Assembly (NCBI GenBank): GCA_007126415.1
Contig: SLBH01000010.1
Location: forward strand, 1-36,192
DNA from: Spirochaetales bacterium
GTDB lineage: Bacteria; Spirochaetota; Spirochaetia; DSM-27196; SLAA01
Reading direction: 5' to 3'
Length of the DNA stretch: 36,192 nucleotides
Positions 1 to 36,192 of this stretch are shown piece after piece; within the stretch, counting starts at the first letter, position 1, and each line of letters opens with the position of its first letter. The position numbers and the translations under genes are program-made. Under the pieces are notes generated by a model. The model did not search any database. It saw only the letters and a list, made by a program, of their open reading frames with translations, and was not told where the DNA came from.

Positions 1-218
1 AGTTGCCCGATGAGGCCGAGCAGTATCTTGAGCGTTTGCTCGAGCTCAGTCCGAGCCGGTGGGAAGCGCAGTTCTTGAAGGCGCGGATGCGCATTATGCA
101 GGGAAGGCCGGAAGAGGCCGTGTCGATCTACGAGCAGATCGCGGATGAAGCCCCCGGCTCTTCAGATCGCGAAGCCGCGCGCGGTAACCTGCGCGAGCTA
201 CGGGAGGCGTCGCAGTGA
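1..218 (+). CDS. TPR-repeat protein, C-terminal fragment (5' end outside window)
   Basis: The ORF is open to the window edge (codon frame starts at nt 3). The tail ...AEQYLERLLELSPSRWEAQFLKARMRIMQGRPEEAVSIYEQIA... has the helical-hairpin A/L/Y spacing of TPR repeats. Stop TGA 216-218 overlaps the next gene's GTG (GTGA). Confidence 0.55.
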   Translation, partial: LPDEAEQYLERLLELSPSRWEAQFLKARMRIMQGRPEEAVSIYEQIADEAPGSSDREAARGNLRELREASQ

Positions 219-1285
219 GTCGGGAACAGGATCGCATGCTACTGATGCTCGCGCTGAACCGTCGACAGGCGTTCAGCTCGGCCGACAAACGCTATATCGC
301 CGAGATACTGCGCGATACCGTCGATCTCGAGCGGATTCCGGAGCAGGAGCTGAACGAGATGACCGAGGGAGACCTGCTGGATGAGCTCAGCAGCCCGTGG
401 GACCCGCTGCAGCTACTCGCCGAGGCCGAGGAAGAGCTCAGCTTTCTCGAACGCCGGCAGATAGAGGTGGTGGTGTTCGGGCAACGTGAGTATCCGCCGC
501 AGCTACTGGAGCTCTACGATCCGCCTGCGGTGCTGTATCTGCGGGGCCGGTGGCCGGCGCACAGTTGTCCGCAGGTCGCGATAGTGGGTACCCGCCGACC
601 GAGCCCGGCGGCCGAGCGCGCCGCGGTCGCTCTCGGCCGCGGTTTGGCAAGAGCCGGTATACCGGTGGTCTCGGGACTCGCCCGCGGTATCGACGGGGCC
701 TCGCATCGCGGTGCGTTGCAGCTCGACGGTTCTACGGTCGCGGTGCTCGGTTCCGGGATAGACCGCATCTATCCGCCGCAGCATGCGCTGCTTGCGGCGC
801 GCATCGTTGAGGCCGGCGGCGCGATTGTGAGCGAGTACCCAACCGGGTTCGATCCCGACAAGCTGCGCTTTCCGGAGCGAAACCGCATCATCAGCGGGCT
901 CGCGCGCACCGTCGTGATCTGCGAAGCTCCCAAGAATTCCGGAGCGCTCATTACCGCCGAGTACGCGCTGGACCAGGGTCGCGATGTGGTTGTTCATGCC
1001 GCCGGCCTGCGCGGCGTGAAAGGCGCCGGCACGCGCGCGCTCGCGACCGACGGGGCCGCAGTTATCGAGACGGCCGAGGATATTCTTCGCGACTGGGGCT
1101 TGGAGCGCCGCCGCGCCGTGGCCGGATCGGCCGAGCTATCGGCGGCCGAGCTACTGGAGGCCGAGCTAGCGGCGGCCGGCGGCGGCGAGTGTAAGGGCGC
1201 CGGCGAGCGGGGCTCCACCGGCGGCTCGGCCGCGGTTGGGCAAGCCCTGGCTTTGGACCTCATGAAGGAGTTGCACCGGACATGA
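215..1285 (+). CDS. dprA: DNA-processing protein DprA (Smf)
   Basis: 356-aa ORF with the DprA Rossmann-core motifs VVSGLARGIDGASHRGAL, AVLGSGIDRIYPPQH and RFPERNRIISGL. GGGAGG lies about 7 nt upstream of GTG 215. Confidence 0.9.
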   Translation: MSREQDRMLLMLALNRRQAFSSADKRYIAEILRDTVDLERIPEQELNEMTEGDLLDELSSPWDPLQLLAEAEEELSFLERRQIEVVVFGQREYPPQLLELYDPPAVLYLRGRWPAHSCPQVAIVGTRRPSPAAERAAVALGRGLARAGIPVVSGLARGIDGASHRGALQLDGSTVAVLGSGIDRIYPPQHALLAARIVEAGGAIVSEYPTGFDPDKLRFPERNRIISGLARTVVICEAPKNSGALITAEYALDQGRDVVVHAAGLRGVKGAGTRALATDGAAVIETAEDILRDWGLERRRAVAGSAELSAAELLEAELAAAGGGECKGAGERGSTGGSAAVGQALALDLMKELHRT

Positions 1286-2235
1286 AACGCGAGCTCGACC
1301 AATACCTAGCCTATCTCTCGAGCGTGCGTAACCTGAGCCCCAGCACGATTCGCGCCTACCGGGCCGACCTCAGCGCGTTTCTCGACTGGGTCTCGAGTGA
1401 AGGACTCGCGTACGAAGAGCTGTCGCTTCGCGACGCGCGCGCGTATGTCGCGCACTTAACGCGCAATAATGCGGCCGGAACGTCGGTGAACCGCGCGCTC
1501 TCGGCGCTCAAGGGGTTCTATCGGCATCTCGTTCGTGTGGGTGCGCGCGAATCATCACCGTTCGACGGCGTGCGCAGCCAGACGAACCGGCGTAGACTGC
1601 CCGAGTTTCTGTTTGAGCAAGAGATGCAGCGCGTACTCGAGATAGACGGCACCGGTTTCCTCGATCTGCGAGATCGGGTGTTGCTCGAGGTACTGTACTC
1701 CGCCGGAGTGCGCATCAGCGAATGCGTTGGGATTAACGTGACCGACCTCAACCTCACGCGCAAGACCGTTGTGGTGCACGGCAAAGGGCGTAAGGACCGC
1801 GCGGTGTTTCTCGGCGATCCTGCGCTTGCGGCGGTAAAAGAGTATCTGCCGATGCGCGAAGCCTTTCTGCGGCGCAAAGGCTTGAGGCATGAACAGGCGT
1901 TGTTGTTAAACAGCCGAGGTGGTAGGCTGTCGGCGAGGGGTGCGGCCGAGATCGTGCATAAGCGTGTCGAACGTGCCGATACGAGCAAGCATGTCACTCC
2001 GCACACGTTTCGGCATAGTTTCGCCACGCACGTGCTCGAGCACGGCGCCGATATACGCGTGGTGCAGGAGTTGTTGGGGCACTCGAGCCTCTCGACAACG
2101 CAGATCTATACGCATATGGGGCTCGGAGCGTTGCGCGAGATCTATGCACTGGCGCACCCGCACGGAACGCGACGCACGAAAAACGGAAATAAGGAAGCAT
2201 TATGGGAACACAAGGGAACAAACGCCAAGAGGTAA
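1282..2235 (+). CDS. xerC: Tyrosine site-specific recombinase, XerC/XerD (CodV) family
   Basis: 317 aa. The N-terminal core-binding domain reads [29 protein letters not shown]. The catalytic C-terminus reads [42 protein letters not shown] overlap with the dprA stop. XerC versus XerD cannot be settled by eye. A roughly 25-aa C-terminal tail overlaps hslV by 34 nt. Confidence 0.88.
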
Positions 2236-2755
2236 GGTCCACAACGGTGGTCGCGGTTCGCCACAACGGCGCGATCGCGATGGCCGGCGACGGACAGGTC
2301 ACCATGGGCGATACCGTCTTGAAGGGTACCGCGCGTAAGGTGCGCAAGATTTACGACGACAGGATTCTGGTGGGCTTCGCGGGAGCTACCGCCGACGCAT
2401 TTACGCTGTTTGAACGGTTCGAGGGCAAGGTCAAGGAGTACTCAGGAGATATAACGCGTGGGGCGGTTGAGCTCGCAAAGGAGTGGCGTACCGATCGAAT
2501 GCTTCGCCGTTTAGAAGCGCTGCTGTTGGTAGCCGACAAGGACAAGATCCTCGAGATCACCGGTAACGGCGATGTCGTTGAGCCCGATTACGGCGTGATA
2601 GCGATTGGGTCGGGCGGGGCGTATGCGCAGGCCGCTGCGCGTGCGTACCTCGATTCCTCATCGCTGAGCGCGCGCGAGATCGCCGAGCGTTCGTTGCAGA
2701 TTGCGGCCGATATCTGCATCTACACCAACTCCCAGATAGTGGTGGAGGAGATCAC

Positions 2756-2759
<4 letters not shown>
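2202..2759 (+). CDS. hslV: ATP-dependent protease subunit HslV (ClpQ)
   Basis: 185 aa. Ntn-hydrolase signature ...[22 protein letters not shown]... plus [23 protein letters not shown] about 5 nt upstream of the ATG. Confidence 0.93.
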
Positions 2760-4204
<1,445 letters not shown>

Positions 4205-4354: not shown

Positions 4355-4774
4355 ATGTTTAGTGGTAATACCTTCGGACGGACGGCCGATATATTACACC
4401 GGTCTATGGACGTGAGTCTGATGCGTCAGGACGTGATCGCCGACAATATCGCGAACTCAGACACGCCGAACTTCCGGCGCAGCGTCGTGAACTTCGAGAC
4501 GCAACTTCGCGACGCGCTCGAAAGCGAGCGTCCGCCGCGCTTCCGGGAGCGTCTTACAAACGAGCGCCACATTCCGTTCCACCGCCCGACCGATTATCGC
4601 TCGGTGCGCCCGGTACGGCAGCTCGACTACTTCACACAGACCAAGAACAACGGAAACAACGTCGATATCGAGGAAGAGACCATGAACCAGCTGCAGAACC
4701 AGCTGATGTACACCATGATGTCGAACTCCTTGAACTCCGAGTTTCGCCGTGTGAATCTGGTGCTGCGAGGATAG
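4355..4774 (+). CDS. flgB: Flagellar basal-body rod protein FlgB
   Basis: FlgB signature ...MRQDVIADNIANSDTPNFRR... The ORF opens at GTG 4334, but ATG 4355 sits about 9 nt after AGGAG (4341-4345), so the ATG is preferred. The stop is unambiguous. Confidence 0.9.
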   Translation: MFSGNTFGRTADILHRSMDVSLMRQDVIADNIANSDTPNFRRSVVNFETQLRDALESERPPRFRERLTNERHIPFHRPTDYRSVRPVRQLDYFTQTKNNGNNVDIEEETMNQLQNQLMYTMMSNSLNSEFRRVNLVLRG

Positions 4775-4787
4775 GGGGTAACCGAGT

Positions 4788-5246
4788 ATGGGCATGTTTT
4801 CGAGCATTAACACCGCCTCGAGCGGACTCACTGCGCAACGCTTGCGACAGGACGTGATCGCCGACAATATCGCGAACGTCAATACCACCAGGACTACCGA
4901 AGGCGGTCCGTTCCGTAGGAGCCGAGTGGTGATGCGCCCGCGTGTAGACCAGCCTTACTGGAGGACGCCGTTTCTGCCGCGTCCGCTCGATCACGGCGTC
5001 GGCAATGGGGTGCGAGTTACCAGTGTAGAGAAAGACATGGACGCCGACCCGCGTCTGGTTTGGGACCCCACGCACCCCGACGCTATACAGTCGGGGCCAA
5101 ACGAAGGCTACGTCGAGATGCCGAATGTCAACGTCGTAAGCGAGATGACCGACATGATCTCGGCTTCGCGCTCTTACGAAGCCAATCTTTCGGTAATAGA
5201 CGGAGCTAAGAACATGTTCGAGCGCGCGCTCGACATCGGTAGGTAA
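4788..5246 (+). CDS. flgC: Flagellar basal-body rod protein FlgC
   Basis: 152 aa. The N-terminus reads MGMFSSINTASSGLTAQRLRQDVIADNIANVNTTRT. The C-terminus reads VEMPNVNVVSEMTDMISASRSYEANL. Confidence 0.94.
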   Translation: MGMFSSINTASSGLTAQRLRQDVIADNIANVNTTRTTEGGPFRRSRVVMRPRVDQPYWRTPFLPRPLDHGVGNGVRVTSVEKDMDADPRLVWDPTHPDAIQSGPNEGYVEMPNVNVVSEMTDMISASRSYEANLSVIDGAKNMFERALDIGR

Positions 5247-5264
5247 GAGAGCGGGAGGTACTAG

Positions 5265-5591
5265 ATGAACGTGTTTGGACCAGAGCAGGCCGGGGGGCAT
5301 ATCATACAACTGCACCGCACGAACCCGGGGCATCTGCCCGGGAAGTTCGACGCGGCGCCGAGCGAACGCGCCGAGGGCTTCGCGGGAATGCTGTTCGAGA
5401 GCCTCGACGGAGTGAACCGCCGGCAGCATCAGCACGCCGATCTTTCGGTGCAGGCGCTTGTTGATCCGGACTCGGTCAATCCGCACGATGTAACGATAGC
5501 CGGAGCAAAGGCGGAGATGTCTTTGAATATAACCAAGAATGTTGTCGATAGAGTGATTCGCGCGTACCGCGATATCACGACGGTCCGATAG
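5265..5591 (+). CDS. fliE: Flagellar hook-basal body complex protein FliE
   Basis: 108 aa. FAGMLFESLDGVNRRQ... and C-terminal ...KAEMSLNITKNVVDRVIRAYRDI match the FliE pattern. GGGAGG RBS. Positioned between flgC and fliF. Confidence 0.88.
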   Translation: MNVFGPEQAGGHIIQLHRTNPGHLPGKFDAAPSERAEGFAGMLFESLDGVNRRQHQHADLSVQALVDPDSVNPHDVTIAGAKAEMSLNITKNVVDRVIRAYRDITTVR

Positions 5592-5640
5592 GTAGCCGCC
5601 GATGTAGACGGAGCTTTTTCGGAATACTGGGAGGGGAACA

Positions 5641-7347
5641 ATGAGAGAGTGGCTCAGAAAGGCGTTCGGCCAGATATCCGGCCTCTGGACGCAATGGAAG
5701 CCCGTACAAAAGGCAATTTTCGCGAGCGTCATCGGTGTCGCAGTTCTGGGTATCGTGCTGTTGGTAACGTTCAGCGCGCGACCCAGCATGGTTCCTCTTC
5801 TCAGCAGGCCGGTCACCGACGACGCAGTGCTCGACCGCATCGCGCTGCGGCTCGATGAGGAGCGAATCGAGTACCGCATCACCGGCGATAACCTCATTAT
5901 GGTGGAGGATCAGCGCACCGCGCAGCGCGCCCGCACGATCTTGGTCCGTGAGAACCTGGTACCCAGCGAGGCCGATCCGTGGGATCTCTTCGATGTGGAG
6001 CGCTGGACCCAGACCGATTTCGAGCGCAACGTGAACCTGCGGCGCTCGATCACCAGACAGCTCGAGCAGCATATCACCGCGCTAGAGGATATAGACTCCG
6101 CGAGCGTTACCCTTGTGCTGCCGGAACGCGAGTTGTTTCTCGAGGATCAGGCGCCGGTCACCGCCTCGGTTATCGTGAGCCCCCGACCCGGAAGCGATTT
6201 TCGTGAGAATCGCGCCAAGGTCGAAGGCATCGAACGGCTGATACAGCTTGCGGTCGAGGACCTGCAGCCCGAGAACATCACGATCACCGACCGGCGCGGA
6301 ATAGTGCTGAACGACTTCGAGCGCATGCAGGACTTTGATGAGCTGGAGTTAACTCGCCGTGAGCTCGCGCTGATGCGCGACAAAGAGCGCGAGTATCGCG
6401 AAGCGATCATCGACGCGCTGCGGCAGATCTACGGTTCCGACCGCGTCAAGATTCTCAACATCGACGTCGATCTCGATCTCGGGAAGCGCACCACCGAGAC
6501 CGAGGAGCACTTTCCGATCACCACACGGCCGAACAATCCGCTCACCCCGTTCGATGACTCCGAGTTCGTACTTTCGATCCCGCGCTCTTCGGAGCAGCTG
6601 AGTGAGGAGTACCGTGGAACCGGCTTCAACCCGCAAGGGCCTCCCGGACAGGAGGGGCAAACGCCGCCGGCGTATCGAGATCTCGAGGGTCTAATCGGCG
6701 AGTGGTCGAGTAGCGAGGACCGCACCAATTACGAGATCAACACCCGCCGAATTCTCGAGCGCGGCAGCCCCAGCATTCGGCGTATCACCGCGAGCGTCGC
6801 GCTGGACGGTCGCTGGGAGCGCCGGTATACTGAGGATGGAGACGTTATCTTTAACCCCGACGGAAGCATCGCGCGCGATTACATCCCTGTGGAGGACGGT
6901 GATCTCGAGACCGCTGAGGATCTTGTGCGGCACGCGGTGGGGTTCAGCGAGGAACGCGGCGACAGCGTGACGGTGCGCAACGTACAGTTCGACCGAAGCG
7001 ATATGTTCGCCGAGGAAGACGCCGAGTACCGGCGTCGCCGTCAGATTCAGATGATCATCCTCTACAGCCTGATCGGTATCGCCGCGATCCTCGTGATTTT
7101 TATCGCGTTTCGGCTCATATCGCGCGAGATCGAGCGTCGAAGGCGGCTCAAGGAAGAGGAGCTCGCGAGGCAGCACCAGGCGATGCGCGAGGCGGCGTTA
7201 CGGAGCGCCGAGGAAGAAGGAACCGAAGTCGAGATGTCGGTCGAGGAGCGTGCTCGGCTCGAGATGCAAGAGAACGCGATCAATATGGCGCGTGAGCATC
7301 CCGAAGACGTGGCACAGCTCATACGCACCTGGTTGATGGAGGAGTAG
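5641..7347 (+). CDS. fliF: Flagellar M-ring protein FliF
   Basis: 568 aa. N-terminal TM (IFASVIGVAVLGIVLLV), periplasmic YscJ/FliF ring-building region, second TM (IILYSLIGIAAILVIFIAF) and a FliG-binding tail ...EDVAQLIRTWLMEE. Confidence 0.94.
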   Translation: MREWLRKAFGQISGLWTQWKPVQKAIFASVIGVAVLGIVLLVTFSARPSMVPLLSRPVTDDAVLDRIALRLDEERIEYRITGDNLIMVEDQRTAQRARTILVRENLVPSEADPWDLFDVERWTQTDFERNVNLRRSITRQLEQHITALEDIDSASVTLVLPERELFLEDQAPVTASVIVSPRPGSDFRENRAKVEGIERLIQLAVEDLQPENITITDRRGIVLNDFERMQDFDELELTRRELALMRDKEREYREAIIDALRQIYGSDRVKILNIDVDLDLGKRTTETEEHFPITTRPNNPLTPFDDSEFVLSIPRSSEQLSEEYRGTGFNPQGPPGQEGQTPPAYRDLEGLIGEWSSSEDRTNYEINTRRILERGSPSIRRITASVALDGRWERRYTEDGDVIFNPDGSIARDYIPVEDGDLETAEDLVRHAVGFSEERGDSVTVRNVQFDRSDMFAEEDAEYRRRRQIQMIILYSLIGIAAILVIFIAFRLISREIERRRRLKEEELARQHQAMREAALRSAEEEGTEVEMSVEERARLEMQENAINMAREHPEDVAQLIRTWLMEE

Positions 7348-15836: not shown

Positions 15837-15856
15837 AACGGTAGGATTTAAATTCG

Positions 15857-16057
15857 ATGATTAAGGTTACGCGGCTCGGGGGGTCCGATACCTACTATGT
15901 AAACCCGCACCAGATCGAGTACATCGAAACCAACCCCGATACAACGCTGGTGATGCTCTCGGGTAAACGCCTGATCGTCGCGGAGGACTTCCAAACTTTG
16001 TTTAACGAGATTATCGCCTACCGCCGGCTGATCGGTGCATTTAAGAACGAGGAGTAG
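15857..16057 (+). CDS. flbD: Flagellar protein FlbD
   Basis: 66 aa. MIKVTRLGG..YYVNPHQIEYIE..PDTTLVMLSGKRLIV matches the FlbD family pattern. It sits immediately upstream of motA. Confidence 0.85.
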   Translation: MIKVTRLGGSDTYYVNPHQIEYIETNPDTTLVMLSGKRLIVAEDFQTLFNEIIAYRRLIGAFKNEE

Positions 16058-16060
16058 GGT

Positions 16061-16846
16061 ATGGATCTCAGTACCATTATTGGCGTAGGCGCCGGCTTTT
16101 TGATGGTGTTCGTCGGAATCATCATCGGCGGTGCAGGGCTCGGTGTCTATGCCAGCCCGGAATCGGTGCTGATTGTGTTCGGCGGCTCGTTCGGCGCGAT
16201 GATGGTTGCAAACCCGTTGTCGCGCATGCTCGGTATCATGCGCTACGTCAGTCACGCGCTGCGAACCTCCGACTGGCGCGAGCAGCAACTCATCAACGAG
16301 CTTGTCGGGTTCTCGGATCGCGCCCGCCGCGAAGGTCTGCTGGCTCTCGAGGACAACCTCGACCAGGTTGAAGACGAGTTCATGCGCAAGGGCGTGCAGC
16401 TGGTTGTAGACGGCACCGACCCGGAGATTATCAAGAGCATCCTCTACAACGATCTCAATCAGTTGCAGGAGCGCCACGATACCGGTATCAAGCTGTTCGA
16501 GGACTGGGGCAAGATCGCTCCGGCGTTCGGGATGATCGGAACGCTGGTGGGGTTGGTCGCGATGCTCGTGAACATCGGCGCCGACCCCGAGATCATCGGG
16601 CGCGGTATGTCGACGGCGCTGATCACGACTCTGTACGGGTCGTTCTTTGCGAACCTGATTCTGATACCGCTGAAAAGCAAGCTCGAGGACCGCGACAAAG
16701 ACGAAACGCGCGCGAAGGAGATCGTGATAGAAGGAATCCTCTCGATTCAGTCCGGCGACAACCCGCGTATTCTGCTTGAGAAGCTCGTATCGTTCTTGCC
16801 GCCGCGTGAGCGCGAGGCGATGCGTCAAGAGTCCGGCCGGGCGTAA
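16061..16846 (+). CDS. motA: Flagellar stator protein MotA
   Basis: 261 aa polytopic membrane protein with MotA/TolQ/ExbB motifs APAFGMIGTLVGLVAML and TTLYGSFFANLILIPL. GAGGAG RBS. Confidence 0.93.
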   Translation: MDLSTIIGVGAGFLMVFVGIIIGGAGLGVYASPESVLIVFGGSFGAMMVANPLSRMLGIMRYVSHALRTSDWREQQLINELVGFSDRARREGLLALEDNLDQVEDEFMRKGVQLVVDGTDPEIIKSILYNDLNQLQERHDTGIKLFEDWGKIAPAFGMIGTLVGLVAMLVNIGADPEIIGRGMSTALITTLYGSFFANLILIPLKSKLEDRDKDETRAKEIVIEGILSIQSGDNPRILLEKLVSFLPPREREAMRQESGRA

Positions 16847-16870
16847 CCGGCGTGCAGAGGAGGTGCCGAT

Positions 16871-17617
16871 ATGGCCCCTGAGCAGAAGAAGCGTCAACGG
16901 AAGAAGGTAGGCGGGGGTGGAGTGCCCGAGTATATGCTTACCTACGGAGACATGGTCACGCTGTTGCTGACCTTCTTTGTGCTGTTGCTCACCGTCGCCG
17001 AGATCGACGGGTACGAGCTGCGGCTGGTGCTCGCGGCGTTCCCGGGACTCGGCATTCAAACCGGTGGGCAGACGCTCCAAGAGGGCCGCCTCGCCGAGCT
17101 CGGGAACACGCTCGAGTCCTTGCCGTCGATGGACCGTGGGCGGCAACTCGATAGAGCCCGCCAGACGGCGGTTTCGCTGTTCCAGCCCGAGATCCGCAGC
17201 CAACAGGTGCGGGTTACCGAGGACGAGCGCGGCTTGATCATCTCGCTCGGCGCCGATGCGTTCTTCCGCACTGCGAGCGCCGAGGTAGACATAGAGCGCG
17301 CGCGCAGTGTACTGCAGCGGCTGGCTCAGCTGCTCAGCTCCGAGCAGCTCGGGGATCGGCTGTTTCGCATCGAGGGGCATACCGACAACATCCCGACCGA
17401 TCCCGACGGGCAGTGGCCCACAAACTGGGAGCTCTCGGTAGATCGCTCGCTGTCGGTGTTTCGTTATCTGTTGGATTTTGCCGGGCGTGATATTGAGGAC
17501 CAGTTTCAGATTATGGGGCTCGGTGAGCAGCGCCCGTTGTTCGACAACGATACGCCCGAAGGGCGAGCGTACAACCGACGCGTCGACGTCATTATTCTCA
17601 GCGAGGGGCATCTCTAA
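16871..17617 (+). CDS. motB: Flagellar stator protein MotB (OmpA-like)
   Basis: 248 aa. Basic N-terminus plus a TM carrying the conserved Asp (YMLTYGDMVTLLLTFFVLL). C-terminal OmpA-like peptidoglycan-binding domain (IEGHTDNIP...NWELSVDRSLSVFRYL...NRRVDVII). Confidence 0.93.
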   Translation: MAPEQKKRQRKKVGGGGVPEYMLTYGDMVTLLLTFFVLLLTVAEIDGYELRLVLAAFPGLGIQTGGQTLQEGRLAELGNTLESLPSMDRGRQLDRARQTAVSLFQPEIRSQQVRVTEDERGLIISLGADAFFRTASAEVDIERARSVLQRLAQLLSSEQLGDRLFRIEGHTDNIPTDPDGQWPTNWELSVDRSLSVFRYLLDFAGRDIEDQFQIMGLGEQRPLFDNDTPEGRAYNRRVDVIILSEGHL

Positions 17618-28702: not shown

Positions 28703-29563
28703 ATGCGGATTACCTGGCAAGCCGCCGCGGCCGCGGCCGGTGTTGGTTTTCTGATCTCGGTTCTGAGCGGCCTGTTCGGGGGCGTCACACTTGGTACGCT
28801 TCTCTTCCGTGCCGTGCTTGCTGCGGTCATTTTCGGCGCCGGGGCGGTTGGCGTTGAGCAGATTTTTCAACGTTTTTTGCCTGAACTCTTCACTGGAAGC
28901 GACGGTGAGGCCGGCGAGCGCGACGCTGTGCCCGGAGCGTCGTCGAGCGCCGAGGCCGGCGGAGGCGGGAATGTCGAGATTGTGTTGGAAGAAGACGAGT
29001 ACCGGCCGGATGCAGGCACCGACGTCGGCTCTGCGGAGGCCTCGGAATCCACCGGGGCAACGGGAGCGGCTGCGAGTTTAGCAAGCGCGTCGGGCTTTAG
29101 CGCAGAGGCGGGGACCGAAGACGAGAACTCGAAAGCGGATGCCGAGTTCAACGTCGGGCTGCATAGTTTCGAGGACTCCCTCGTTGAGGAGGTCTCGGAG
29201 GAGCTTGGCGGCGTTGAGCCGGGCGGGTTGCGTGACGCGCACCCCGAGCCCGACGACCTTGGGTCTGAGGACGGTCACGTCGCGGCGGCCGAGACCGAGT
29301 CTGCCTCGGTTGAGGGAGCCGGCGACGCCGAAGGCGGCGGGGTGCCGGAGGTTGACCCTGGCGAGCTCGATACGCTGCCGGATATCGAGGCGTTTTCGGG
29401 CGATTTTGCAAGTGATGTTGGTACCGGCGGAGGCGCGGGGCGCGGCTCCGGCTCAAGCACTGGGGCGTCCTCGCAGCGGGAGGGTGACTCAAGCGATCAG
29501 GACCCGTCGGTGATGGCAAAAGCGTTACAAACGATGTTGAAGCGTGACGAGCAGCGCAAGTAA
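28703..29563 (+). CDS. Hypothetical membrane protein: two N-terminal TM helices plus a long acidic Gly/Ser/Ala/Glu-rich disordered region and a short conserved-looking basic C-terminus
   Basis: 286 aa. TM1 is [26 protein letters not shown] and TM2 is [15 protein letters not shown]. About 190 aa of D/E/G/S/A low complexity follow, and the protein ends [21 protein letters not shown] recognise no family. Confidence 0.6.
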
Positions 29564-32311: not shown

Positions 32312-32327
32312 CACACGGAAGGTGCAG

Positions 32328-32660
32328 ATGTCGTTGCTACCGATCGACCTTCAAACCCTATTTCTCAGGATGAGTCAAGTTGGGCAGGATCAGGCCGCCC
32401 AGCGCGACTCCATCATTCAGGGGCAAGACGTCGCCGGCAGGGAGATTGCGCAACGCAGCCGGCAACATCAGCTCAGTGTCGGCGAGGCCCAGCGTGTTGA
32501 AGAGGGTCCCGACGCAATCAACGAGCACGACTCGGGAGCGCAGACCGAAAGCGGTGAGCAGGGCGAACAGGCCGCGGACAATGCCGAGACAAAAGGAACC
32601 GAGGAAGAGAATGTGTTTCAGGATCCCGATCTCGGCCGCAATATCGACATTTCGGGGTAG
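32328..32660 (+). CDS. Small acidic hypothetical protein (110 aa), hydrophobic N-terminal helix plus disordered tail
   Basis: MSLLPIDLQTLFLRMSQVGQDQAAQRDSIIQGQDVAGREIAQRS... is followed by a Glu/Gln/Gly/Ala-rich tail. ATG 32328 lies about 5 nt after GGAAGG. GTG 32322 is an alternative start. I recognise no family. Confidence 0.55.
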   Translation: MSLLPIDLQTLFLRMSQVGQDQAAQRDSIIQGQDVAGREIAQRSRQHQLSVGEAQRVEEGPDAINEHDSGAQTESGEQGEQAADNAETKGTEEENVFQDPDLGRNIDISG

Positions 32661-32666
32661 TTCCGG

Positions 32667-33281
32667 ATGCCCTTAGTCGTACCCATCGCTCTCAATATTG
32701 TAGTTCTCGCTATCGGCTTTGTGTTTCTGCATGCCAAGCTCGACCGCAAGGTGCGCCCGGACGCCTTGCTGGACGAGATCAAGCGCGAAGTTAACAGCAT
32801 TATCGTAGAGCTGAACCAAACCACCGATCGAAATATCGGCCTCATTGAGGAGCGCATCGAGACGCTCAACGCCATGCTCGAGAAGGTGGACAAGCGCCTT
32901 GCGTTGATTCGGCGCGAATGGGAGCAGCACGAAGCCGGAGCTCGTGTGTACACCGACCTCAAACGTGTCGCGAAACAGAGCAGAAGCTCGGGTGGCGGAC
33001 TCCCGCCGGCAGCCGGTTCGTCCGAGGCTCGGCGGGAGCCGGGGGCCGAGGCGCGCTCGGAAAAGCACCCTGAGGACGCCTCCCGGCCGTCGGGCGACTC
33101 GGAGACGCTGCCGAGCGGTTCCGAGAGCGCGAAGCGATCGCAGGAGGCGCGCAGCCGCGTGCGCGAGCAGGTTGTGTCGTTACATCGTAAGGGAATTGCG
33201 CCGAACATTATAGCGAGCCGAGTGGGCTCGACGCTCGGCGAGGTAGAACTCATCATAGCTTTGCACGACGGAAAGGGTTGA
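32667..33281 (+). CDS. Membrane-anchored coiled-coil protein with C-terminal helix-turn-helix-like segment (DUF2802-like architecture)
   Basis: 204 aa. N-terminal TM PLVVPIALNIVVLAIGFVFL, helical segment EIKREVNSIIVELNQTTDRNIGLIEERIETLNAMLEKVDKRL, a disordered Ser/Gly/Glu/Arg linker, then SRVREQVVSLHRKGIAPNIIASRVGSTLGEVELIIALH, which has HTH-like spacing. Confidence 0.6.
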   Translation: MPLVVPIALNIVVLAIGFVFLHAKLDRKVRPDALLDEIKREVNSIIVELNQTTDRNIGLIEERIETLNAMLEKVDKRLALIRREWEQHEAGARVYTDLKRVAKQSRSSGGGLPPAAGSSEARREPGAEARSEKHPEDASRPSGDSETLPSGSESAKRSQEARSRVREQVVSLHRKGIAPNIIASRVGSTLGEVELIIALHDGKG

Positions 33282-33282
33282 T

Positions 33283-35007
33283 ATGCAGCCGATCATCGGA
33301 ATCGATCTAGGAACAACTAACTCCAGCGTCGCTGTCGTTCTACACGACGAGCCGCGCACGGTGGTCAACGCAGTTGGAAGCCGAACTACGCCTTCGGTGG
33401 TGTCGCTCGCGGGCGACGGAGAGGTGCTTGTCGGACAGTCCGCTCGTAATCAGGCCGTGAGCCGTCCGGAGGTGACGGTTCGAAACGTGAAACGCTTGAT
33501 CGGCACCACCGAGTACTGCAGCCTTGGAGGTCGGCGTCACTCGCCGGAAGAGATCAGCGCGCTCATTCTCAAGCAGCTTCGAAGCGATGCCGAGGCGTAC
33601 CTGGGTGCGGCGGTACAGGACTGTGTGATCACGGTGCCGGCGCATTTCTCACAGGCACAGCGCCTCGCGACGCGCGAGGCCGGTCGCTTGGCAGGGCTCG
33701 AGGTGCGGCGGATCATCAACGAGCCGACCGCGGCGGCTCTGGCGTACGCTTCGGAGCTCGCTCGGCAGGCGCGCATCGTGGTGTACGACCTCGGCGGCGG
33801 AACCTTCGATGTTACCTGCCTCGAACGCGATGGGGAGAAGTTCGCGGTACGCTCCACGCTGGGTGACGGCGCACTCGGCGGCGTTGAGTTCGATAGAATG
33901 CTGCTCGAGCACGTGGTAGGGGAGTTTGAGCTCCAAGCCGGCACGCGGCTGCAGGAAGACCGCGTCTTGATGCAACAGCTGCAGGAACTCGTTGAGCGTG
34001 CAAAGATAGAGCTCTCGAGCCGGGTCTCTAGTACGGTAGCGTTGCCGTTTTTCGGGCGCAACGGCGGCACGCACTTGACCTGCGAGCTTACGAGAGAGTT
34101 GCTTGAGGGGTTGATCACACCGATGCTGCACCGAAGCGTAGGCCTTACCGAACAAGCCGTTGAGGAAGCGGGATTCAACGACGAGAACGGAATTGATTAC
34201 CTCGTTCTCGCCGGCGGATCAACGCGGATTCCGTTGGTGCAGCGCTACCTCGAGCGCAAGCTGGGGTGTCGTCCCTCGGCGCGAATTAATCCTGATGAGG
34301 TAGTAGCGCTCGGTGCCGCGCTGGATGCCGAGTTGGTGCGTTCCGCCTCGGAGCGCAAGCGCGTACAGGACGTGACCGGCTTTGCGTTAGGTGTTGAAAC
34401 CGAAGGAAATACCGCCACGGTGCTTATCCCGCGTAATACTGCGCTACCGGCGCGTGTGACCGAGGTCTTCACCACGGTGAGCGACCGTCAGCACTCGGCG
34501 CAGATTCACGTGCTGCAGGGTGAGGAGCGGGCCGCGTCGCAAAACAACTCGCTTGGTCGCTTCATGCTCGCCGGCTTGAGCGAAGGCGCGCGCGGTGAAC
34601 CGCGCATTGAGGTGAGTTTTGACCTCGACCACGACGGGATCGTGACGGTGCGCGCCCGCGACCTTGCTTCGGGGGTTGAGGAGCAGACCACGGTGGTGCC
34701 GGTCTTTGAGGAAGGGGGGCGGGAAGGGCGCGACCGGGACTCCGGCCGCGACGACGAGTTGCGATCCGCGCAACGGCAGGTGCAGCGGCTCGTTGCGTAC
34801 CTTGAGGCGCAGCTATCGAAGCATGCCGATGCGATAGAAGCGGAGTTTCGCTCCGAGATAGAGGAGCTTCTGCAGGGAGCGCAGCACGCCGCGCGTACCC
34901 TGCGGCAAGCGGCGCGTCTGCACGAGTATCGCATCGCGCTTGAAACCATTGTGCAGGAGCTGCGCGCCGTTGATCTCGAGGCGGAGGTCGGCAATGAGGG
35001 CGCATGA
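33283..35007 (+). CDS. Atypical short Hsp70-family ATPase (DnaK paralogue, HscC-like size)
   Basis: 574 aa. Hsp70 motifs IIGIDLGTTNSSVAVV, NVKRLIG, IINEPTAAALAY, VVYDLGGGTFDVT, LVLAGGSTRIPLV and INPDEVVALGAA. A beta-sandwich substrate-binding domain is present (DVTGFALGVETEG...IEVSFDLDHDGIVTVRARD). The hydrophobic VLLL linker is replaced by KRVQ, and the helical lid is short. Confidence 0.88.
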   Translation: MQPIIGIDLGTTNSSVAVVLHDEPRTVVNAVGSRTTPSVVSLAGDGEVLVGQSARNQAVSRPEVTVRNVKRLIGTTEYCSLGGRRHSPEEISALILKQLRSDAEAYLGAAVQDCVITVPAHFSQAQRLATREAGRLAGLEVRRIINEPTAAALAYASELARQARIVVYDLGGGTFDVTCLERDGEKFAVRSTLGDGALGGVEFDRMLLEHVVGEFELQAGTRLQEDRVLMQQLQELVERAKIELSSRVSSTVALPFFGRNGGTHLTCELTRELLEGLITPMLHRSVGLTEQAVEEAGFNDENGIDYLVLAGGSTRIPLVQRYLERKLGCRPSARINPDEVVALGAALDAELVRSASERKRVQDVTGFALGVETEGNTATVLIPRNTALPARVTEVFTTVSDRQHSAQIHVLQGEERAASQNNSLGRFMLAGLSEGARGEPRIEVSFDLDHDGIVTVRARDLASGVEEQTTVVPVFEEGGREGRDRDSGRDDELRSAQRQVQRLVAYLEAQLSKHADAIEAEFRSEIEELLQGAQHAARTLRQAARLHEYRIALETIVQELRAVDLEAEVGNEGA

Positions 35008-35896
35008 ACTCTACAAGGAGCTCGGCCTGAAGCCCAACGCCGACCCGGTTGAGGTCAAGCGAGCGTACCGGGCTCTTCTGAAACGCTACCATCCCGACCT
35101 CGCCGGCGCCAACAACCATACCGAACGCCTCGATCGGATCGTCGCCGCGTACCGCGAGCTGATGAGCCGTCGCGAGCCGATCCCGTTTCGAACCCGCGAG
35201 CAAACGAACAGGCGCGCGCAGTCACGGGCACGAGGCACCTCGTGCCGAACCGGCGCCGGGCGGGCACAAGGCGCCGGGCGGACACAAGGCACCTCGTACC
35301 AAGCCGGCGCTGGGCGGGCACAAGGCGAGGGCCGGCCCCCGGGCGGCGCGCGGCACGGCACCACCGCGCGCGGTTGGACCGATGCCGGAGCCGACGGTAC
35401 CGCCGCCGGTCCGCGTGGCGCAACCGCAGCCGACGGTGGGGCGGAGCGCGAGTACGATCTATTCACGCTTGGGCGTATGGCGGTTGAGTCCAACAGTGTC
35501 AGTCGGCGCGCCTTTGCGGTGCGTATGCTCGGCAATCGTCGCAAGAAGCTTGCGTACGGTTACATTCGGCAAGCGCTGAACGACCCCGCCGAGATTGTGG
35601 TGCTCGAAGCGGTGCGTGCGGTCGCTAAGCTCGAGATCCTGCAGTCGGGCGGGGAACTCGCCACGGCGTTTCATCGCGACTCCGCGGCGGTAAAGACTGC
35701 GATCCTAACCGCAGTGGAAACGATAGCTCGACCGCAGCACTTTCATTCGGTGATCCTCTCCGGCCTACGCGAAACCGACCCTGTTCTGCGCCGCCGCAGT
35801 CTGCGACTGTTTCGCCGCTACACCCAGGCCGATGCGTCGGACACCGGTACCTCTCGATATCGACGTACAGCCTCGTTCGGTGAGGGCGGCCGATGA
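34994..35896 (+). CDS. J-domain protein with Arg/Gly/Gln repeat linker and C-terminal HEAT-like repeats
   Basis: The J-domain reads MRAHELYKELGLKPNADPVEVKRAYRALLKRYHPDLAG (HPD present). The C-terminus RRAFAVRMLGNRRKKLAYGYIRQALNDPAEIVVLEAVRAVAKLE...DSAAVKTAILTAVETI...LRETDPVLRRRSLRLF looks like HEAT/PBS-lyase-type repeats. ATG 34994 lies about 6 nt after GGAGG and overlaps the Hsp70 gene by 14 nt. The track ORF opens at 34940. Confidence 0.8.
   Translation: MRAHELYKELGLKPNADPVEVKRAYRALLKRYHPDLAGANNHTERLDRIVAAYRELMSRREPIPFRTREQTNRRAQSRARGTSCRTGAGRAQGAGRTQGTSYQAGAGRAQGEGRPPGGARHGTTARGWTDAGADGTAAGPRGATAADGGAEREYDLFTLGRMAVESNSVSRRAFAVRMLGNRRKKLAYGYIRQALNDPAEIVVLEAVRAVAKLEILQSGGELATAFHRDSAAVKTAILTAVETIARPQHFHSVILSGLRETDPVLRRRSLRLFRRYTQADASDTGTSRYRRTASFGEGGR
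35234..35327 (+). repeat. Imperfect in-frame 54-nt tandem repeat (with an internal 18-nt sub-repeat) in the J-protein linker
   Basis: ggcacctcgtgccgaaccggcgccgggcgggcacaaggcg (from 35234) and ggcacctcgtaccaagccggcgctgggcgggcacaaggcg (from 35288) match at 36/40 positions by eye. The sub-unit gcgccgggcgg[g/a]cacaag occurs twice in copy 1. The repeat encodes (A)GRAQG/GRTQG units. Confidence 0.8.
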
Positions 35897-36192
35897 GCGG
35901 CCTTCGCACGCTCTCACACGACGGCTCGCCACGCTCGGCAGGCTCGGGCCAGGGCCGCGCACGAGCGATGGAGTATCGCCGACGCCTCGGCCGTACCTTT
36001 CTCGACGACGGACGCGTGATGCTCGAGGGGCTTAAGGATGCGATCGCCCAGATCGGGCAGTCGGCGGATTCCGGCGCGCTCGTGAACCAAGCGTTTCGCT
36101 ATGCGCATTCGTTGAAGTCGGAAGCATCCTTTCTTGGGCTGACGCCGTTGTTCGAGCACGCGTATGCGCTCGAGGAGTATCTTGCGTTGGTG
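35893..36192 (+). CDS. Hpt-domain protein, N-terminal fragment (CheA-like histidine kinase start; 3' end outside window)
   Basis: This ORF is not in the supplied track because it is open at the window edge. My own translation from ATG 35893 (ATGA overlap with the J-protein stop) is MSGLRTLSHDGSPRSAGSGQGRARAMEYRRRLGRTFLDDGRVMLEGLKDAIAQIGQSADSGALVNQAFRYAHSLKSEASFLGLTPLFEHAYALEEYLALV. The segment FRYAHSLKSEASFLG matches the Hpt phospho-His motif (compare CheA P1 ..AHSIKGGA..F..). There is no stop for 100 codons. Confidence 0.6.
   Translation, partial: MSGLRTLSHDGSPRSAGSGQGRARAMEYRRRLGRTFLDDGRVMLEGLKDAIAQIGQSADSGALVNQAFRYAHSLKSEASFLGLTPLFEHAYALEEYLALV

Follow-up and report, generated by a model that had tools for sequence, protein, structure and literature searches.

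HscA and HscB are the model of an Hsp70 with a private J-protein encoded within the operon of the pathway that the pair serves, and they have one native client, IscU. Here we describe a chaperone pair encoded in a stretch of 36,192 nucleotides (nt) from a Spirochaetales bacterium (the window; contig SLBH01000010.1 of assembly GCA_007126415.1, forward strand). The genes for an atypical Hsp70 and for a J-protein with HEAT-like repeats (J-HEAT) stand at the 3' end of a flagellar superoperon and are followed by the start of a CheA-like gene. We consider it probable that the two proteins are a spirochaete-specific Hsp70 paralogue and its private class-C J-protein partner, and that this cassette serves the motility apparatus. 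The system is of a known kind, the specialised Hsp70/J pair; what is new is the Hsp70 subfamily, the architecture of the J-protein and the fixed flagellar context.

The housekeeping DnaK of E. coli and Salmonella can be needed for flagellar gene expression via FlhDC. TopJ of Mycoplasma, a class-C J-protein of more than 800 amino acids (aa), acts in assembly of the motility organelle (the terminal organelle) and uses the housekeeping DnaK. In Pseudomonas aeruginosa, the housekeeping DnaK acts on the flagellin FliC (PMC11816700). Loss of the DnaK paralogues SglK/MxDnaK2 and StkA of Myxococcus xanthus affects S-motility and development, not viability (PMC11019930). Three prokaryotic Hsp70 types, DnaK, HscA and HscC, are distinguished in a review in which spirochaetes and flagella are unmentioned (PMC8215388).

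An Hsp70 gene in a flagellar operon is known from Borrelia burgdorferi. The flgB superoperon of this organism extends from bb0294 to bb0264, with BB0264 (hsp70, dnaK-1) as its last gene, co-transcribed with the bb0272-bb0264 genes (PMC11607428). BB0264 overlaps BB0265, the neighbouring BB0263 (signal peptidase) is on the other strand, and a BB0264 transposon mutant (T05TC397) was recovered, with 7/15 mouse tissue sites positive (PMC3485029 supplement), so that its infectivity in mice is reduced. With respect to Hsp70/J genes in spirochaete flagellar operons, the literature searched mentions BB0264 just as an operon boundary and a transposon target. No description of its function, of a J-HEAT partner or of a coupling to CheA was found there, an absence that is not proof, as coverage was incomplete. 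The published neighbourhood analysis names a sub-module of sigma28, FapA, YjfB and a protein with a transmembrane segment and a domain of the helix-turn-helix type (TM+HTH), not a chaperone pair or CheA (PMC11607428). A preliminary description of the window had stated that no described pair wired to a flagellar/chemotaxis cluster was known. That statement has to be amended for the Hsp70, since BB0264 has long been annotated in the flgB superoperon (PMC11607428; PMC3485029 supplement); for the J-HEAT partner and the coupling to CheA, no description was found in the literature searched.

The genes at the 3' end of the window and their features are as follows.

33283..35007, plus strand: atypical Hsp70, 574 aa (Pfam HSP70).
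34994 (ATG)..35896, plus strand: J-HEAT co-chaperone, 300 aa (DnaJ domain and HEAT-like repeats).
35225..35327, plus strand: 54-bp tandem repeat, 1.9 copies, within the linker of the J-protein (found with Tandem Repeats Finder).
35893 (ATG)..36192, plus strand: N-terminus of CheA (Hpt/P1), cut by the window end, with His72 at 36106-36108.

The Hsp70 stop and the J-protein start overlap by 14 nt, and the J-protein stop and the start of the third open reading frame (ORF) share an ATGA overlap at 35893. The preliminary description had read the same chain of three genes, and the ORF coordinates confirm it. The TM+HTH gene upstream ends 1 nt before the Hsp70 start. A scan for promoters and terminators from the TM+HTH gene through CheA gave nothing above background.

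The window was compared with the published coordinates of the BB0264 superoperon, and the gene order matched; from synteny only, BB0264 may belong with the Hsp70s described below. BB0264 occupies the same slot, after fapA (BB0267), BB0266 and BB0265, and it overlaps the preceding gene, as the window Hsp70 nearly does; in both organisms hslU lies upstream of the operon. The two differ in length (491 aa for BB0264, 574 aa for the window Hsp70), and neither a J-HEAT gene nor a CheA gene lies 3' of BB0264.

Conservation of the arrangement was surveyed in GTDB species representatives. FapA, not a chaperone, was used as the anchor of the scan, which gave an unbiased view of the region downstream of fapA. 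The best 80 of 387 FapA loci were taken, all from uncultured Spirochaetota and with FapA 48-96% identical; Borrelia, the Treponema type strains, Leptospira and Brachyspira lay outside the survey. Enough downstream DNA was present in 67 of the 80 loci, and the genes were classified by hidden Markov models (HMMs). After fapA, the gene of a small protein and the TM+HTH gene, the order Hsp70-J-CheA was found in 32 loci, plus one with an in-frame deletion. CheA followed directly, with the chaperone pair absent, in 14 loci, Hsp70-J was present and CheA absent in 12, and neither the pair nor CheA was present in the remaining 8.

In 44/44 assessable loci the gene directly 3' of the Hsp70 encoded J-HEAT. 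The pair invariably stood at the 3' end of the flagellar superoperon, and in most loci the two genes overlapped by 14, 8 or 4 nt. In the 12 loci with no CheA the operon ended with the J gene, beyond which lay a convergent, unrelated gene. An intact J-HEAT gene was never seen without the Hsp70 among the surveyed loci, two remnants (L012 and L073) being the nearest cases. The same gene order and short overlaps recurred in dozens of species in which FapA was 48-60% identical, so that the arrangement is not due to chance. The interleaving of the locus patterns on a tree of FapA similarity implies that the pair was lost as one unit on five or more independent occasions. The Hsp70 and J-HEAT are an obligate, co-evolving pair at the tail of the flagellar superoperon. 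The link to CheA is facultative in both directions.

Both remnants were inspected. At L012:12892-13419 (PUPD01000269.1) an in-frame deletion joins residues 1-43 of the Hsp70 to the HEAT domain; the J-domain is gone and CheA is intact. This fusion represents a natural knockout still under way or else an artefact of the assembly. At L073:13068-13292 a short ORF after the TM+HTH gene scored 45 bits with the HEAT-domain HMM, the cassette being otherwise absent. L073 is placed inside a Treponemataceae-like group that has the cassette, and the fragment is probably a decayed remnant.

The window Hsp70 matched PF00012 (HSP70) with 490 bits (E=7e-147). A neighbour-joining (NJ) tree with 200 bootstraps was built from 50 flagellar-operon Hsp70s, 84 DnaKs and E. 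coli DnaK, HscA and HscC, with no spirochaete DnaK included, and the flagellar-operon Hsp70s were monophyletic in 177/200 bootstraps. Members of this clade were 41% identical to the DnaKs, 34-35% to HscA and 32-33% to HscC; the DnaKs of the comparison set shared 59-68% identity among themselves. The window protein missed the NCBIfam cut-offs for DnaK (NF001413, 543 bits against 648; TIGR02350, 528 against 822) and for HscA (TIGR01991, 409 against 708). In a homologue search its closest relatives were "Hsp70 family proteins" of 554-581 aa from Spirochaetaceae and Alkalispirochaetaceae metagenome-assembled genomes (46-68% identity), and ordinary DnaKs ranked next (42-49% identity). The best match among solved structures was the DnaK of Geobacillus. 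A plain duplicate of DnaK was rejected on equivalog scores, linker, lid, latch and tail, and tree grouping, all of which fail. HscA was rejected on the TIGR01991 score and on a context that is flagellar rather than isc/hscB.

The nearest relatives outside the clade and the best solved match are both DnaKs of Firmicutes. A segment of 24 residues of the nucleotide-binding domain (NBD) of E. coli DnaK is absent from the window Hsp70 (gap between residues 77 and 78), and it is likewise absent from Gram-positive-type DnaKs and from HscC. The missing segment and the Firmicutes relatives together hint that the paralogue derives from a Gram-positive-type dnaK rather than from a duplicated spirochaete gene. 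At one locus (L039:17949-21051) a second Hsp70 gene and then a J-domain gene lie about 1 kb 3' of CheA. With the clade HMM the second Hsp70 scored 625 bits and the operon copy 822. This second pair is apparently a canonical dnaK-dnaJ, and both Hsp70 systems apparently coexist there.

The window Hsp70 is made up of an NBD (about residues 1-354), a linker (355-363, ending in KRVQD), the beta-sandwich of the substrate-binding domain (SBD-beta, 364-471), a tether (477-488) and a lid (485-572), and the C-terminal tail is absent. The AlphaFold2 (AF2) model had a predicted local distance difference test score (pLDDT) of 86, with the tether at 477-488 disordered and followed by three helices. In an alignment of 50 clade members the ATPase residues D8, K70, E171, D194, T199 and D201, the J-contact residues R167, N170, T173 and P419 and the substrate-pocket residues F426, V436 and I438 were invariant or nearly so.

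Other elements differ from DnaK. The interdomain linker, the role of which in Hsp70s has been reviewed (PMC8215388), is VLLLD in DnaK (residues 389-393) and aligns with K-R-V-Q-D in the window Hsp70. The clade consensus is [I/F/L]-R-[L/V/F]-R-D, in which the equivalents of L391 and D393 alone are retained. At the arch, DnaK M404 is replaced by Asp or Glu and A429 by Val. The acidic residues E206, E217 and D477, whose roles in docking of the J-domain on DnaK are as given in the review (PMC8215388), are not conserved in the clade, nor are the latch residues D540, H544 and K548. The region after SBD-beta measures 97 residues in the window protein, with a clade median of 86, and 131 in E. coli DnaK, 82 in HscC and a median of 134 in the DnaK comparison set. 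Compared with the five-helix lid of DnaK, the lid region lacks helix A, the C-terminal tail and the first half of helix B, and a three-helix bundle (485-572) is kept. The protein is thus predicted to be a working ATPase and peptide clamp in which the allosteric, lid and J-binding elements have been remodelled.

Most of what the preliminary description had said of the Hsp70 agrees with these results. The VLLL linker is missing, with KRVQ in its place, as the alignment to DnaK 389-393 also has it, and the ATPase motifs and SBD described as intact carry catalytic and pocket residues that are kept across the 50 clade members. The phylogeny that it proposed as a check gave a clade separate from DnaK, HscA and HscC and linked to motility, and the placement within DnaK or HscC that would have refuted it was not seen. 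Its view that most of the lid and tail were lost was overstated: the tail is gone together with helix A and half of helix B, and the bundle remains. The likening to HscC in size was apt for size and for the short lid, and does not extend to the SBD-beta insertion of HscC, which is absent, or to sequence identity (32-33%).

The J-protein consists of a J-domain (residues 1-60, with the HPD motif at 33-35), a disordered linker rich in Gly, Ala and Arg (61-151) and four HEAT-like repeats (156-283). DnaJ (PF00226) was matched at residues 6-58 with 43.3 bits, against a cut-off of 27.8, and the J-domain helices had a pLDDT of about 85 in the AF2 model. The HPD motif was invariant in an alignment of 24 family members and was found in all J ORFs that the loci yielded. 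This alignment is characterised by a J-domain with a basic helix II, a linker of highly variable length and a conserved domain of about 130 aa. HEAT_2 scored 20.9 bits in the window protein, under the Pfam cut-off of 27.7; orthologues of J-HEAT carry the family (PF13646). The AF2 model has eight helices at 156-283 that form an alpha-solenoid (pLDDT >93), and Foldseek searches of the PDB with the model returned, as best matches, alphaRep (PBS-type HEAT-like repeats), deoxyhypusine hydroxylase (DOHH) and the lyase CpcE/F, with a probability of 1.0. These are HEAT-like repeats, engineered or natural, that bind proteins. Profile, model and structure search thus agree with the intact HPD and HEAT-like repeats first read from the sequence. 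DnaJ and HEAT_2 were the sole Pfam detections, and no G/F region, zinc finger (PF00684) or DnaJ C-terminal domain (DnaJ_C, PF01556) was found in the J-protein, which is therefore of class C. Its scores with DnaJ equivalog models did not exceed 34 bits, whereas the cut-offs lie above 330.

The linker of the window J-protein (about 90 residues, of low complexity) holds the 54-bp tandem repeat. Near-identical contigs carry versions of the protein of 282, 300 and 340 aa, so that linker length is polymorphic in the population; the difference of 18 aa between the 282- and 300-aa variants is due to the repeat. An exhaustive profile search found about 120 representatives of the J+HEAT family at the 50%-identity level, and word-indexed searches with the single J-protein or with the 24-sequence profile recovered just 8-13 true relatives. 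Four highly divergent members were examined for Pfam matches of their neighbours. Three of them have the Hsp70 upstream and/or CheA downstream, and the fourth, on a contig of 1.9 kb, has the same tight gene packing and nothing further. No description of a J-domain joined to PBS-type HEAT repeats was found in the literature searched, where coverage was incomplete and absence is not proof.

Loss of the acidic J-docking residues in the Hsp70 and the co-occurrence of the two genes are signs of a private pairing with J-HEAT. From domain integrity and gene context we infer that J-HEAT would stimulate the ATPase of its partner, that the pairing would be private and that the client would be related to motility.

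The specialised bacterial pairs known are HscA/HscB and HscC/DjlC, and in outline the cassette would work as they do. HscC/DjlC is similar in several respects. It has a specialised Hsp70 with a short lid (82 residues after SBD-beta, against the clade median of 86), a linker that is partly polar (VILTD), no tail and no 24-aa NBD segment, and a dedicated non-DnaJ J-protein is encoded nearby. HscC nevertheless falls outside the clade and has an SBD-beta insertion (…NRQGVSG…) that the window Hsp70 lacks, and DjlC has no HEAT domain, no translational coupling and a context unrelated to flagella. Filing of the window protein as HscC-like was rejected for the absence of the insertion and the identity of 32-33%. 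HscA differs in keeping an LLLD linker, HscB in its client-binding domain, and the pair in its isc context. The Myxococcus paralogues are also Hsp70s tied to a motility system, but that system is social gliding by type IV pili and exopolysaccharide, not flagella, and their architecture is DnaK-like. They are not known to have a J partner of the HEAT type or to be encoded within a motility operon. The likeness to TopJ is confined to the J-domain (NCBIfam TopJ models were among the weak J-domain matches of J-HEAT, with 23 bits where the cut-offs are 300 and 512); the other domains of TopJ are unrelated and it has no private Hsp70. The flagellar roles of housekeeping DnaK are those of the general DnaK/DnaJ/GrpE system, not of a specialised pair encoded in the operon.

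The third ORF was identified in the window by Pfam Hpt (37.1 bits against a cut-off of 24.6), with His72 in the motif FRYAHSLKS. The exact Hsp70 sequence recurs on contigs of up to 132 kb, in which the third gene is complete and encodes 671-672 aa (L001/L002). The full-length protein has Pfam Hpt, P2 and HATPase_c domains and a marginal CheW-like domain (27.4 bits against 23.5), and it aligns with E. coli CheA over residues 34-643 and with P3-P5 of Thermotoga maritima CheA. Across this CheA family the phospho-acceptor His is conserved, as are the N, G1 and G2 boxes. Its scores were far under the NCBIfam cut-offs (NF041336, 150 against 950; NF007835, 88 against 793), and Pfam detected no CheW-like P5 in five scanned orthologues (L007, L008, L009, L030 and L053). 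The next genes on the longer contigs encode HlyIII and then, on the other strand, a ParA-like protein; none of cheW, cheY, cheX and cheB was found near CheA at L002:12611-15328. This orphan CheA may be a specialised kinase apart from the main chemotaxis CheA. An alternative in-frame ATG is present at Met26 (35968) and could be the true start, whereas the gene callers of the longer contigs took the start that overlaps in ATGA. The preliminary description had read the third ORF as an Hpt/CheA protein and held that its proving to be something else would count as refutation; extension of the contig gave a complete, divergent CheA, and answered in the negative its question whether cheW or cheY follow.

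Most of the window is taken up by a flagellar superoperon of the spirochaete type that ends in Hsp70-J-CheA, as assigned from Pfam matches and gene order. In its 5' part the order is dprA, an xerC-like gene, hslV, hslU and fliF-fliG-fliH-fliI-fliJ-…-fliK-…-flgE-…-motA-motB-fliL-fliM-fliN/Y-fliO-fliP-…-flhA-flhF-flhG. In its 3' part it is a membrane protein of 286 aa in the FlgV slot, fliA, fapA, a 112-aa protein, the 204-aa TM+HTH protein, Hsp70, J and CheA. The further features of the window are as follows.

215-4204: dprA, a xerC/D-type recombinase gene, hslV and hslU, directly 5' of the flagellar superoperon.
4632-5897 (421 aa) and 15848-17611 (587 aa), minus strand: long ORFs that overlap plus-strand flagellar genes.
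28703-29563: ORF of 286 aa in the FlgV slot, between flhG and fliA, with an N-terminal membrane segment.
32322..32660, plus strand: small conserved protein, 112 aa, in the "YjfB-like" slot of the sigma28-FapA-YjfB-TM+HTH sub-module.
32667..33281, plus strand: TM+HTH protein, 204 aa, with an N-terminal transmembrane segment and a C-terminal HTH-like domain (DUF6115).

In B. burgdorferi hslU adjoins flgB as well (BB0295), so that the synteny with Borrelia reaches past the flagellar genes. Pfam and NCBIfam scans gave no match for the 286-aa ORF, which, from its slot in the published superoperon scheme, is probably a long homologue of FlgV (BB0268 family). The 112-aa protein also had no match in Pfam and NCBIfam scans; in the majority of the 80 loci surveyed a homologue lies directly 3' of fapA, and five loci gave no match. 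For the TM+HTH protein, DUF6115 scored 23.7 bits, under the cut-off, and a match to SpiroCoCo_C was weak. Its gene was found upstream of the Hsp70 or of CheA in all surveyed loci. The minus-strand ORF at 4632-5897 had no Pfam match, and both minus-strand ORFs have the look of shadow ORFs that arise in GC-rich coding DNA, not of genes.

The preliminary description was right in proposing a dedicated pair linked to motility genes, the two genes being co-inherited in 44/44 loci and the Hsp70 forming a distinct clade, and the wiring of this pair to CheA is what the survey does not support. In such a scheme the cassette would be devoted to the downstream CheA-like kinase or to the chemoreceptor array, and translational coupling would set the ratio of chaperone to kinase. 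The direct succession of J and CheA in 32/67 loci, often with an overlap of 4-8 nt, speaks for it, as does the unusual nature of a CheA (orphan, under the NCBIfam cut-offs and with a weak P5) that could plausibly need help in assembly. However, 12 species keep Hsp70-J without CheA at that position and 14 keep CheA without the pair, its phospho-His and ATP-binding boxes being equally conserved either way, and no CheA adjoins BB0264 of B. burgdorferi. CheA is therefore a neighbour and not an obligate partner, and we regard a cassette devoted to it as unlikely. CheA as an obligate client was rejected from the presence/absence patterns. The idea that different CheAs occur with and without the cassette was also rejected, as catalytic motifs and length were the same in both groups.

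By analogy with the action of DnaK/DnaJ on sigma32 and of HscC on sigma70, the pair might instead bind a native regulator encoded upstream, sigma28/FliA or the TM+HTH protein, and tune late flagellar expression. The cassette always lies 3' of the sigma28-FapA-YjfB-TM+HTH sub-module (PMC11607428), the Hsp70 start is 1 nt past the TM+HTH stop as BB0264 overlaps BB0265, native sigma factors can be kept inactive by Hsp70s (PMC8215388), and Glu or Asp at the arch position of DnaK M404 might favour basic segments. Yet Borrelia keeps BB0264 although sigma28 has been lost (PMC11607428), loci without the cassette retain fliA and the TM+HTH gene, and the predicted binding is drawn from gene context and analogy, and such a regulatory chaperone seems improbable to us. 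An ordinary second proteostasis system of the DnaK/DnaJ type, which happens to sit last in a large, highly expressed operon and has no role specific to motility, would account for close out-of-clade relatives that are bona fide DnaKs (42-49% identity), for the best solved match (Geobacillus DnaK) and for the repeated loss of the cassette, and DnaK duplications are common in bacteria (PMC11019930). It accords poorly with a position that is fixed, and overlaps that are conserved, over deep divergence. It also accords poorly with a J-protein devoid of generic client-binding domains (G/F region, zinc finger and DnaJ_C), with the remodelled linker, arch, lid and J-interface, and with the apparent canonical dnaK-dnaJ pair that L039 carries beside its operon cassette (625 against 822 bits). 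We regard this explanation as very unlikely.

The reading that we favour is that of a spirochaete-specific Hsp70 paralogue and a private J-HEAT protein serving the motility apparatus. Being built into the 3' end of the superoperon, the cassette would be made with, and in proportion to, the late flagellar and motility proteins. The HEAT domain, as the targeting or client-binding module of the cassette, would bind a single defined site or partner within the motility apparatus, and the long flexible linker would allow the J-domain to reach the Hsp70. The HPD motif would then trigger ATP hydrolysis and the SBD-beta of the Hsp70 would lock onto a segment of the partner, which would thereby be assembled, remodelled or held. 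A linker of the type hydrophobic-Arg-hydrophobic-Arg-Asp, an acidic arch, a tethered lid and an altered J-surface would fit a machine for one partner and one J-protein, not for general folding. Candidate clients are, in order, the products of the operon tail (the TM+HTH protein, FapA and sigma28) and then, where present, the CheA-like kinase; the former are at least as likely as CheA.

Several points weigh against a chaperone pair for the motility apparatus. On at least five occasions the pair was lost and its neighbours, the flanking flagellar genes and CheA, remained, so that the cassette is dispensable for building the flagellum, and it is to be seen as accessory, not as a core assembly factor. 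B. burgdorferi has no J gene 3' of BB0264, and BB0264 would therefore need another J-protein. The KRVQD linker of the window protein is less hydrophobic than the clade consensus, and classical allosteric coupling might be weakened by it. Operon membership is by itself no proof of a motility client.

A bolder proposal, which we put forward tentatively and hold to be somewhat doubtful, is that the clade is a fourth class of bacterial Hsp70 and, with its J-HEAT adaptor, a built-in assembly or remodelling factor of the periplasmic-flagellar motor, of its export apparatus or of its control proteins. The clade fits none of the three reviewed prokaryotic Hsp70 types by score, tree or architecture. 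If the proposal is true, no earlier chaperone machine would be known as a built-in component of a flagellar operon, and the polar linker and tethered lid would mean a different coupling of ATP hydrolysis to client capture. A natural Hsp70 that has all catalytic residues and in which two of the four linker hydrophobics are replaced by Arg would be a useful test of the linker-docking model, and the replacement of helices A/B by a flexible tether would be likewise informative for chaperone mechanics. The arrangement is real and conserved, and hence more than a curiosity of one contig. The fixed operon slot gives a testable hypothesis for the long-annotated gene BB0264/dnaK-1 of the Lyme spirochaete, and the identity of the client, once found, could reveal an unknown step in the assembly or control of the periplasmic flagellum.

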